Shown here piece by piece: positions 24,050 through 27,261 of a stretch of 57,636 nt of DNA. Position numbers and translations under genes: made by a program. The first letter of the stretch is position 1. Every line of letters begins with the position of its first letter. Source of the stretch: an uncultured Chitinophagales bacterium (GTDB lineage Bacteria; Bacteroidota; Rhodothermia; Balneolales; DATFMH01); the NCBI GenBank assembly GCA_964572735.1, contig CAZNHE010000011.1:1-57636 (forward strand), read 5' to 3'. A model generated the notes under the pieces. The model did no database searches. It saw only the letters and a list, made by a program, of their open reading frames with translations, and had not been told where the DNA came from.

Positions 24050-24508
24050 TCAGGCTACCCCGGTACTGCCGAATCCTCCTTCTCCGCGTTCACTTTCTTC
24101 CAGCACTTCCGTTTCCTGCATCGTTACGCGGGTTACCGGGGCAATCACCATCTGTGCAATACGATCTCCGCGGTGGATCTCGAACTCCCGGTCCCCGTGA
24201 TTAATCATGATGATCTTCACCTCCCCGCGATAGTCGGCGTCTATAGTGCCCGGGCTGTTCAGCAAAGTGATGCCTTCCCGGATTGCCAGCCCGCTTCGGG
24301 GCCGTATCTGGGCCTCATAACCCACCGGAAGCTCGATTTTGAGTCCCGTCGGAACAAGCGCCCGGCCTCCCGGCCAGATGATCATCCGTTCCGTGACCGC
24401 AGCGCGGATATCCATTCCCGCGGCATGAGCACTTTCATAGGAAGGAACCGGCAGATCTTTTGCATGGTCGAGACGTAACAGGCGGACAAGCGGGGTATTT
24501 TCAGGCAT
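24050..24508 (-). CDS. dut: dUTP diphosphatase
   Basis: [40 protein letters not shown]. Confidence 0.97.
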
Positions 24509-24592: not shown

Positions 24593-24627
24593 AACCTCTC
24601 CAAAAGTTCGAAACTTTTGGAGAGGTT
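24593..24627. repeat. REP-like palindrome, copy 1
   Basis: aacctctccaaaagtt-cga-aacttttggagaggtt, 16 bp perfect stem; core shared with 26384-26416. Confidence 0.85.
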
Positions 24628-25034: not shown

Positions 25035-26090
25035 ATGAGAAGACTAATAAGTGTGGGCATTGCGGTTCTTTTCCTGGCGGCCGCCTGCGGGCTGCTGGGC
25101 GGAGGCAGGAACACCCCACCTCCGCCGGGCCGCCGCGATTATACCTGGACCGTGGACACCCTGGCCAACGAGCCGGGCGGGTTTATTTACGATATCTGGG
25201 GGCCCTCGCCGGATGATATCTGGGCCGGATCCCCATCTGGGGTACACCGATTGTGGCACTTTAACGGGAAAAAATGGACCCCATGGCCTCATGCGCAGCA
25301 AATCAGCCCCGGGTTTAATGTTACCTGCCTGTATGGGTTTGCCCGTAATGACGTCTGGGCCGGGAGCGGGACGGGGGAACTCTATCATTTTAACGGGAAG
25401 AAATGGTCGGTGGTCTTTACTTATACCATCAAAGGAATGGGTCAGCCGGACTTTACGGACATCTGGGGTACCTCCTCAGACGATATCTGTGCGATCGGGC
25501 GGGCTTGGCCCGATACCGCCAAGTCCGTGGCCTCCATCAGAGGGTTTCTCTTGCATTACGATGGCCGACACTGGAAAGAGCTGTTGGTGACTGATTTCAG
25601 AGGGCAACTTCAACAGGTTCGTGTAGAACAAGAAAACGTATTCATAATGGGCACCCAACATACGCCCGATACGTATTTGTTGTACCATTATAAAAATGGA
25701 CGACTGGATCAGCTGGCTTCTAATACAAGTAACATAAGAATGGGCAATGTAGGTAGTGAAATTTATTTTACTATGGGAAATAAAGTGAAACTTTATCGGC
25801 GGGGCAATTTTTTTACGGTGATGGCCATTTCGGCAGATCCGGGAACAGTTGTCGGGGCAAACGGGAGAGATAGAAATGACGTGTTTATATATACTTGGGA
25901 GGGAGTCATGCAGTATAACGGGACGAATATACAATACCTTCTCCGTATCCCGAAAGATATGCCCCGTTATCCTTTTCGGGAAATACTATTCAAAAAGGAA
26001 GTCTTCTTTACCGTGTTGGATGCTGACTTTGGAGTAACGAATCTGGTTTACCACGGGATTTTACCAGACACAATAAACAGTAACAATTAA
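25035..26090 (+). CDS. Lipoprotein with repeated IWGxxxxDxW...HxNGxxW units (probable beta-propeller)
   Basis: gaggag RBS before ATG 25035; lipobox LAAAC; PPPPGRRDYTWTVDTL; repeats DIWGPSPDDIWA, LYGFARNDVWA, DIWGTSSDDICA, HFNGKKW x2, HYDGRHW. Confidence 0.8.
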   Translation: MRRLISVGIAVLFLAAACGLLGGGRNTPPPPGRRDYTWTVDTLANEPGGFIYDIWGPSPDDIWAGSPSGVHRLWHFNGKKWTPWPHAQQISPGFNVTCLYGFARNDVWAGSGTGELYHFNGKKWSVVFTYTIKGMGQPDFTDIWGTSSDDICAIGRAWPDTAKSVASIRGFLLHYDGRHWKELLVTDFRGQLQQVRVEQENVFIMGTQHTPDTYLLYHYKNGRLDQLASNTSNIRMGNVGSEIYFTMGNKVKLYRRGNFFTVMAISADPGTVVGANGRDRNDVFIYTWEGVMQYNGTNIQYLLRIPKDMPRYPFREILFKKEVFFTVLDADFGVTNLVYHGILPDTINSNN

Positions 26091-26116
26091 TAAAAGAAGA
26101 AATGCTCTAAAAACAA

Positions 26117-26272
26117 ATGGGCCAGCGGGTGGCCACCCTGGCCGACGGGATCAAAGCCCCGGGCCGCTACTCGGTCCGCTTCGACGGGGCCGCGCTGGCC
26201 AGCGGGGTCTACCTGTACCGGCTGAAGGCGGGCAGTAAGGTGCTGGAGCGAAAAATGCTGCTGATGAAGTAG
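26117..26272 (+). pseudogene. Orphan C-terminal part of a T9SS (Por) type A sorting domain; not in ORF track
   Basis: Translates MGQRVATLADGIKAPGRYSVRFDGAALASGVYLYRLKAGSKVLERKMLLMK*, with typical GQRVATL, LASGVYLYRL and KMLLMK; no cargo or signal peptide upstream. Confidence 0.85.
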
Positions 26273-26292
26273 GGGCGCAAAATTTTGCACCC
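26269..26292 (+). repeat. GTAG-type REP-like palindrome
   Basis: GTAG followed by gggcgcaaaa/ttttgcaccc (one mismatch); overlaps the stop codon of the T9SS fragment. Confidence 0.6.
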
Positions 26293-26339
26293 AATTCCCC
26301 CCCTGTGGTTTCACATTACCGGCTGATGCCTTTGTTTAA

Positions 26340-26372
26340 AACCCTCCAGGGTTTTCGTAAACCCGGAGGGTT
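26340..26372. repeat. REP-like palindrome
   Basis: aaccctcc(a)gggttt-tcgt-aaacccggagggtt. Confidence 0.7.
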
Positions 26373-26383
26373 CGCTATTCCCA

Positions 26384-26416
26384 AACACTCCAAAAGTTCG
26401 AAACTTTTGGAGTGTT
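26384..26416. repeat. REP-like palindrome, copy 2
   Basis: aacactccaaaagtt-cga-aacttttggagtgtt; 25 nt core ctccaaaagttcgaaacttttggag identical to copy 1. Confidence 0.85.
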
Positions 26417-26421
26417 CTTGT

Positions 26422-27261
26422 TTAATTATGCGGCGAAATACTATAGGATTCCAGCCTTACTTTCACGTTGCCCAGCCAGACGCGCGCGTTTCCCCCGACC
26501 GGCACACGCAAGGAATCGGCTGTAAACCAGACCGTAAAATCTCCATGGAACCCAAACGGGCCGTCAAAACCGGTGTAGGCTTTGCATTTATAGACGCTGA
26601 CCGGATCATCTCCAAAGTAATCTATCTGCATTTTATCTATAGAATCACTGTTTTTCACCCGGATGGAATCTCTTTTCTGATTGATATAGATCGGGATGGT
26701 TTCGTTCTCTTTCGTACCGGCGTAAATCCTGAGGTAATAGAACAGCGACGGCCCGCATATCGACGGCTGATGCAGGGGCAGAGTGTCTCCGGCAATTAGC
26801 GGACCGCCCCTTTTCTCACGTTTAAAACTGTACACTTTACCTTCGTCATATCTGAGCTTATAGAGCGTCGCAAAATGGATATGGTCGTCCACATCATCGT
26901 TCCAATAAAGCACCTCGTAAGGAACGGTGTCATTTTTAGCTATCAGGCTGTAAAATTTCTCCTCCTTATTTCCAACAAAAGGGATGGATGGATTGCTCTT
27001 GATGATGGCTCTGAGGAAGTGGTAGGACGTGCCGCGATAGGTCGTGTCCGGCAGGAGATCGACCGTCAGCCAGGCTACGGTAAAAAAACCGTACCTGATT
27101 TTATAAACCAGATGTTCACGGACATTCCACAATTGCTGTATTGTCGGCGGACCGCCGCCTGCTTTGCCCGGAGAACGGCTCCCCCCGGAAGGAAGATCGT
27201 GATGTGCCGGTCCGGTGTAGATGAATAGCATCAAAAAACCGGCCAGCAGGCTTTTTTTCAT
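26422..27261 (-). CDS. DUF3108-like exported protein
   Basis: Signal peptide; EHLVYKIRYGFF, LFYYLR, VWFTADSLRVPV, LGNVKVRL pattern. Confidence 0.7.
   Translation of the reverse strand: MKKSLLAGFLMLFIYTGPAHHDLPSGGSRSPGKAGGGPPTIQQLWNVREHLVYKIRYGFFTVAWLTVDLLPDTTYRGTSYHFLRAIIKSNPSIPFVGNKEEKFYSLIAKNDTVPYEVLYWNDDVDDHIHFATLYKLRYDEGKVYSFKREKRGGPLIAGDTLPLHQPSICGPSLFYYLRIYAGTKENETIPIYINQKRDSIRVKNSDSIDKMQIDYFGDDPVSVYKCKAYTGFDGPFGFHGDFTVWFTADSLRVPVGGNARVWLGNVKVRLESYSISPHN

Follow-up and report, generated by a model that had tools for sequence, protein, structure and literature searches.

The window, by which we mean the whole analysed stretch of 57,636 nucleotides, carries on its forward strand a gene for a beta-propeller lipoprotein of 351 amino acids (25035..26090) and, behind it, the remnant of a T9SS type A C-terminal domain (CTD) of 51 codons (26117..26272, forward strand), which is a pseudogene fragment without a signal peptide. 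The two are enclosed by reverse-strand genes, on the left one which we take from its sequence to be dut (dUTPase; 24050..24508) and on the right a DUF3108 gene (26422..27261; PF11306, E 5e-8). In relatives dut lies directly after the DUF3108 gene, with a gap of 16-25 nt in all five related genomes compared, so the 1.9 kb that separates them here is an insertion specific to this lineage. Around dut, relatives have two or three DUF3108 paralogues in a cluster. Palindromes that we presume to be REP-like were found on the left (24593..24627) and right (26384..26416) sides of the inserted block; these outer two belong to one family, of which the assembly contains about 14 copies at three mismatches or fewer, and further palindromes lie at 26274-26293 and 26339-26372. 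Contigs from sequencing runs X8 and X4 have different sequence before 26383, that of X8 continuing into the DUF3108 side, and in other runs the sequence joined at 26383 carries palindromes of a different family.

The lipoprotein begins with a predicted signal peptide (25035-25085, forward strand) and a lipobox cysteine, Cys18 (25086-25088, forward strand), that is predicted to be lipidated, and its frame stays open from 25035 to 26090 across a marked change in base composition, as the preliminary description of this DNA had stated. Its AlphaFold2 model (mean pLDDT 91.5) is all-beta after the signal helix. The Foldseek matches are propellers, the best being YCF48 (TM 0.62, 14% identity), with many unrelated propellers scoring close to it. 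Scans of Pfam, NCBIfam and PADLOC assigned the protein to no family. The homologue search returned 106 sequences, itself included; Ignavibacteria account for ten of the fourteen source names that give a taxon, the nearest taxon-titled records are Balneolales, and the Atlas neighbours at 0.96-0.97 are Ignavibacteriota clusters without a name. In both Balneolales and Ignavibacteria the homologues often occur as two to four genes in tandem. A distant subfamily, also found in tandem, matches the profile well over the first ~120 positions only (G062:C1:2799289-2802258, G062:C1:1699294-1699983, G061:C1:2821953-2822513 and G063:C1:3828461-3829504), and in G062 one such lipoprotein is followed by a leader and a weak cargo-core match of the kinds described below. 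Propeller lipoproteins of ~420-450 amino acids from a weakly related family adjoin the cassette in two genomes (L122:3989-5257 and L126:6964-8256), and at G065:C2:2256846 a leader match is preceded by a gene of this kind. In G002 a tandem pair of lipoproteins has one member split by an open reading frame (L022:7743-8980) which, judged by its sequence, is presumably an insertion-sequence-like transposase.

The 51-codon frame starts 26 nt past the lipoprotein stop and encodes the second half of a type A CTD, both as first described. Its match to TIGR04183 is weak (E 0.006; 16.5 bits against a cut-off of 23), and it is 39-63% identical to the tails of full-length CTDs in the same genome. With 0.92, the third-position G+C (GC3) of the remnant lies above the whole range of 0.41-0.80 measured on 30 other CTD tails of the host, and 72 of 74 nt of it were also found in another context in run X2. 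Neither a cargo signal peptide nor passenger domains were found in the window, and profile searches found no core of the T9SS-secreted proteins (cargos) described below anywhere in the assembly. The host has a T9SS machine, as both components searched, SprA and PorV, gave family matches above the cut-off.

The DNA between lipoprotein and remnant is explained by a homologue in G004, which is 65% identical and intact. A spacer at 26096..26117 (forward strand) is identical to the G004 sequence at 22 of 22 nt, and in G004 it is followed by a GC-rich hairpin and then, about 140 nt further on, by the start of the cargo gene. The triplets atg ctc taa (26102-26110), previously read as an aborted start, are thus part of a conserved non-coding spacer, which is all that is left of the leader region here. 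The ATG of the fragment was created by the junction, as intact CTDs have leucine at that place. At the deletion junction itself (26117..26127, forward strand), where the spacer is joined to CTD codons, there is a 9-nt stretch of which eight nucleotides equal the first arm of the leader hairpin, as judged from the leaders of G004 and G001; the 9 nt past the junction double as CTD codons for (L)GQR. It is likely from this sequence that the leader and some 1.6-3 kb of cargo were deleted through the 8/9-nt microhomology. A misassembly at this place, which the preliminary description had allowed for, is contradicted by contigs of runs X1 (25955-26273) and X3 (25992-26182) that cross the junction with no differences; the two samples come from a single study, and the source sample may be among those of that study. 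Two unrelated host CTDs resemble the remnant more closely (63% and 59% identity) than the CTDs of family cargos do (at most 55%), so that its position is what ties it to the cognate cargo.

Three parallel deletions that left a CTD behind a lipoprotein were found among the relatives. In L076 a lipoprotein 93% identical to that of the paralogous locus L072 is joined directly to a CTD tail, itself 85% identical to the cargo tail of L072, and in L037 and L048 the leader and the cargo start are kept before the sequence jumps to the CTD. The G004 cargo is without its 3' half, and the G002 and G003 cargos have frameshifts that may be assembly errors.

The preliminary description had expected lipoproteins of this type to stand upstream of T9SS cargo in relatives, and this was largely borne out. 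Linkage was scored on 76 loci obtained from the best 80 of 206 confirmed genomic matches. Among the 50 lipoprotein runs with at least 4.5 kb of downstream sequence, the cargo core starts within 1.5 kb in 34 and is absent in 16, a count that is partly circular because the 23 cargos behind the core profile all come from loci counted in these runs. A same-strand CTD was found downstream in 36 of the 50 runs versus an opposite-strand CTD in three, and 59 of 71 downstream open reading frames, with the CTD removed, fall into one cluster. A less biased test used the coordinates of matches in five whole Ignavibacteria genomes, each with at least 147 CTD genes. Ten of the twelve cargo-core matches there sit behind a match to the lipoprotein family: all six strong matches behind full-length lipoproteins, and four of the weak ones behind relatives that match the N-terminal third only, the other two weak matches being without a lipoprotein. 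Across 151 genomes of the order the lipoprotein was found in 17 and the cargo core in six, all of them lipoprotein-positive; the two are adjacent in five of the six and lie at contig ends in the other (G001). No cargo-core match was obtained in 11 of the 17 lipoprotein-bearing genomes, several of which are draft assemblies. The cassette occupies other chromosomal sites in relatives, for example between genes presumed from their sequence to be nadD-like and apt-like. An intact single lipoprotein-cargo pair is present in a named isolate, Stygiobacter electus (L088).

T9SS cargos have mostly been studied as enzymes and adhesins of Bacteroidetes. Intact partners of the lipoprotein have both a Sec signal peptide and, at the other end, a type A CTD (Por_Secre_tail), the latter above the curated cut-off in 26 of 28 partners, the remaining two being cut by contig ends. 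Their parts are ordered as signal peptide, variable head, shared beta-rich core, a part that we would label FN3-like or propeller-like from its motifs or else a beta-helix, and finally the CTD. The usual head is CBM96/DNRLRE-like (Foldseek match to 8wab at probability 1.0, TM 0.48-0.50 by target; CBM96 at 0.89 in the Atlas as a lead only), and NF033679 matches weakly in three of 29 cargos. Such heads suggest binding rather than catalysis. M4 peptidase heads were found in two of 28 cargos and M10 peptidase heads in one of eight, plus one of 44 weakly. Scans against Pfam, NCBIfam and PADLOC revealed no toxin family in any cargo, and no TANFOR or nuclease family was reported by the family scans; some heads matched no family at all. 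A search with the core returned 318 cluster representatives at E <= 1e-30, repeat proteins among them, and no solved relative turned up by sequence (best E 0.095).

Between the last lipoprotein and the cargo of the intact loci lies a structured leader of 130-190 nt. It consists of a 10-bp hairpin (P1) followed by a stem (P2) that encloses a small conserved hairpin (P3, with a 7-nt loop) and a variable hairpin to form a three-way junction, and it closes with a U-rich run that ends just before the ribosome site of the cargo. Double-sided changes were observed in 18 of 24 pairs over 25 sequences, and 88.5% of the leader cells are paired versus 78.8% in shuffles and 38-55% in slid controls, the structure having been read from the same 25 sequences, which favours its score. 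Stems P2 and P3 tolerate G-U pairs, as expected for RNA, and P1 shows Watson-Crick swaps only, so that P1 could conceivably act as DNA as well. Rfam 15 gave no matches for nine loci, and the best hit in a permissive scan of one leader (E 0.14) is far under the gathering threshold. The leader model matched 62 times at E <= 0.001 in 83 sources: 56 matches lie on the same strand within 250 nt behind a lipoprotein (L035:9125-9235 and L088:7022-7113 are examples), and the remaining six are opposite-strand echoes of the same spacers. In five whole genomes outside the training set, with 150 candidates scored per genome, all eight leader matches lie behind a lipoprotein-family match, one of which is a weak relative. 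The leader is duplicated in L032, L036, L041 and L044. It is lost in the window, and a model search found none in the window's own assembly.

The preliminary description had pictured the locus as one of several with GC-rich constant ends and an exchanged AT-rich middle. Searches of the window's own assembly by blastn, tblastn and profiles returned the one lipoprotein and neither a paralogue of it nor any cargo core or leader; that assembly has 239 contigs, is 99% marker-complete and has several contigs ending in CTD DNA, so that the absence of paralogues is not proven. Seven contigs of this same genome, G000 (C14, C50, C72, C122, C126, C167 and C180), start or end in or just before CTD-coding DNA, and its T9SS cargo genes, possibly with more cassettes, are therefore under-assembled. 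Constant ends and an exchanged middle were found instead in relatives and in population contigs. The 5' constant block runs from the signal peptide through the RDYTWxVD strand (25035..25158, forward strand) and is a likely recombination anchor; the variable propeller body follows at 25159..26087 (forward strand). In 28 pairs of lipoproteins from the same locus, codons 1-41 are 80% identical in nucleotides, the body 53-62% and the end 65%; the corresponding values for pairs from different loci are 54%, 43-52% and 52%. The extreme tandem pairs (L037, L049 and L056) reach 89-95% in the 5' block versus 36-56% in the remainder, some pairs are patchworks with 60-100% identity by segment, and in nine of the 28 the 5' block is just 47-67% identical. 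A constant 3' end inside the lipoprotein gene was considered and set aside as weak (65% against 53-62%, pooled nucleotides). The 3' constant block is the C-terminal part of the cargo: two cassettes in G003, a genome of the same genus, agree at 94% of positions in cargo 3' DNA (548 and 641 nt, CTD included) and at 74% in 383 nt of the 5' end, and blastn matches nothing between these parts.

Contigs from the population fork at the same place. Those of runs X1, X2 and X3 match the window up to 25158 and then pass into sequence reading SVYSAP, a subtype that is also present in G002 and G003; the part shared before the fork is 25073-25158. Run X2 in addition holds an 88%-identical variant over 25129-25493. 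The depths in X2, 10.6 for the upstream contig, 11.2 for the shared 81-nt piece and 4.8 for the 88%-identical branch, fit alleles at one site, paralogues or a sister species being further possibilities on contigs.

The composition of the lipoprotein gene follows other boundaries. Our counts agree with the earlier ones (47/60 G+C at 25081-25140, 20/60 at 25741-25800 and 45/60 at 26161-26220), and a change-point scan places the shift at 25590, within the variable body, where GC3 falls from 0.67 to 0.41 (z = 4.9). A step this large was found in three of 768 host genes of 300-450 codons, the host average being 0.56. It is the largest among 85 family members, of which 84 are richer in G+C in the first half, and the nearest homologues step in the same direction (GC3 0.56 to 0.37-0.42). 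We therefore rejected the step as the exchange point, since the swap point lies at ~25158 and the gradient is general in the family. Of the proposed GC-rich constant ends, the ends themselves exist, but the 5' block stops near 25158 while G+C stays high to 25590; the AT-rich half is no exchanged middle but ordinary homologous sequence, 49-65% identical to its nearest homologues.

Co-variation of the two proteins was measured on 21 full-length pairs, eight of 29 having been dropped (six truncated and two failing a C-terminus filter). In Mantel tests the lipoprotein body correlates with the cargo head (rho 0.26-0.30) and with the first core domain (0.35-0.38), with values of -0.06 to 0.11 for the later cargo parts. 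The 5' block of the lipoprotein tracks the later cargo parts (rho 0.30-0.35) and not the head. An apparent correlation of 0.31 between the 5' block and the CTD fell to 0.07 once truncated cargos were removed and is an artefact. All these values are inflated by genome relatedness and linkage, and physical linkage accounts for the co-variation equally well.

The locus is a true deletion relic of a recombining cassette which, when intact, is ordered as one or more propeller lipoproteins, a structured RNA leader and a modular T9SS-secreted protein. The earlier reading as the relic of a lipoprotein and T9SS-cargo pair is thus supported by the linkage in relatives, and the leader is added to it. Here the leader and all of the secreted protein save its sorting tail were lost, likely by microhomology. 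The lipoprotein body, the leader, the cargo head and the first core domain form a middle that may be swapped as one unit by homologous recombination between the 5' block of the lipoprotein and the 3' part of the cargo. The leader may lower cargo output relative to the lipoprotein by attenuating or processing the transcript. The lipoprotein would probably bind the variable front part of the neighbouring cargo, and extra or orphan lipoproteins could be retained as protection against, or for recognition of, the cargo variants of other strains. This explanation starts from the observed gene order, single cargo family, covarying leader, shared end blocks and repeated cargo loss, and by analogy it makes the intact lipoprotein a cognate immunity-like or inhibitor-like partner of the cargo front; as the best explanation of the relic and its partner relation, we give it about an even chance of being right.

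What speaks most strongly against a protective or recognition partner is how rarely the cargos have enzyme heads. In a different reading the cargo is a glycan-binding surface adhesin, diversified for escape from phages or predators or for new substrates, which the lipoprotein would serve as a folding chaperone or surface anchor rather than as a protective protein. The common CBM96-like head would suit such an adhesin, as would the remainder of the cargo, which consists of stalk-like beta domains, propellers or beta-helices; the best fold match of the lipoprotein, YCF48, is an assembly factor, although many propellers score alike, and repeated cargo loss would suit a phage receptor. A chaperone or anchor would however be expected to decay without its client, yet lipoproteins persist intact without cargo in 11 of the 17 genomes, at seven of the eight lipoprotein-bearing loci in the linkage set, and in the window, and a row of two to four divergent copies ahead of one cargo would be more usual in an immunity array. 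Since lipoproteins survive intact, and increase in number, where cargo is missing, we favour the protective or recognition partner and consider the adhesin reading a serious but somewhat unlikely one.

The two proteins might also be physically independent, merely co-transcribed on a horizontally moved block, their co-variation then being a product of linkage and neutral gene conversion. The presence of the block at different chromosomal sites in close relatives, its patchy occurrence (17 of 151 genomes), its frequent decay and the modest Mantel correlations (at most 0.38) all agree with this. It is nevertheless improbable in our judgement, as the same gene order, the same leader structure and, out of 150 or more possible T9SS cargos in each genome, the same partner family recur in two phyla at a protein identity of 25-35%. 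An origin of the CTD fragment by misassembly, or its lying next to the lipoprotein by chance and with no relation to it, gains some credit from the repetitive nature of CTD-coding DNA, at which several contigs of the assembly break, and from the single study behind both bridging runs. The error-free crossing of the junction in two samples, the conservation of the spacer right up to the junction and the same kind of join in another phylum (L076) make this very unlikely indeed.

The closest described system is the potempin/KLIKK system of Tannerella forsythia. According to the available part of its description (PMC9890683), an outer-membrane lipoprotein gene there also lies directly upstream of that for a T9SS-secreted protein, signal peptides are far more alike than mature lipoproteins (65% versus 4-14% identity), orphan lipoproteins with similar signal peptides occur, and inhibition of the KLIKK peptidases by potempins was demonstrated; some cargos of the present family are likewise thermolysin-like (M4) or M10 peptidases. 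The same partial source (PMC9890683) describes potempins as beta-barrels of 98-132 residues and unrelated sequence whose KLIKK cargos are all peptidases and whose genes mostly abut, whereas here a single family of 330-residue propellers (a 351-residue precursor in the window) is separated by a structured leader of 130-190 nt from cargos whose heads are mostly CBM96-like on a shared core, with peptidases in 2/28, 1/8 and 1/44. Membership in the potempin/KLIKK system thus fails on fold, size and cargo type. Similar logic is seen in the TilA/TslA pair of Staphylococcus aureus and in lpl and T7SS immunity arrays, as far as the accessible portions of these papers go (PMC10730906, PMC2568036, PMC9484751). 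TilA is a tandem lipoprotein of the Lpl/DUF576 type and TslA a proven lipase toxin in the accessible text (PMC10730906), whereas no toxin domain was found in the cargos here; that system is a Gram-positive T7SS rather than a T9SS one, its folds are unrelated, and the conserved block is central in lpl (PMC10730906, PMC2568036) and 5'-terminal in the propeller lipoproteins. Polymorphic toxin-immunity systems in general, of which our loci are putative members, share with them tandem partner genes of variable copy number that recombine across a conserved block, and orphan partner genes without a secreted protein. The TANFOR toxins of Bacteroidetes are also polymorphic secreted proteins in T9SS cargo neighbourhoods, but in the sections of the source at hand (PMC7073777) a DNase toxin domain is followed downstream by the immunity gene. 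The definition of T9SS type A cargo (TIGR04183 / PF18962) differs from our loci, which have a dedicated upstream lipoprotein and a leader, and from the window, which has half a CTD.

No description of the lipoprotein, the cargo or the leader was found in the open main texts of PMC and bioRxiv, and the cassette is apparently undescribed; supplements or subscription RNA-motif catalogues could list the leader. A dedicated, recombining lipoprotein partner of a T9SS cargo was found only for the peptidases of T. forsythia, as presented in the available part of PMC9890683. Because the copy in the window is no more than a pseudogene relic, this particular locus is itself of limited interest. The family as a whole joins two unannotated protein families, with more than 100 lipoproteins, and an RNA motif absent from Rfam into one conserved unit in two phyla, and the leader is in its own right a candidate for a new regulatory RNA. 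If the partner relation is true, polymorphic effector/immunity logic would be extended to the T9SS in environmental bacteria. A T9SS-based polymorphic self/non-self system of Ignavibacteria and Balneolales, in which a modular surface effector with swappable heads is matched by arrays of cognate propeller immunity or recognition proteins and silenced by a new cis-regulatory RNA, is a rather doubtful but attractive further step; were it true, the lipoprotein arrays would be replenished through recombination at an unchanging 5' anchor, with the RNA holding the effector silent until a signal comes.
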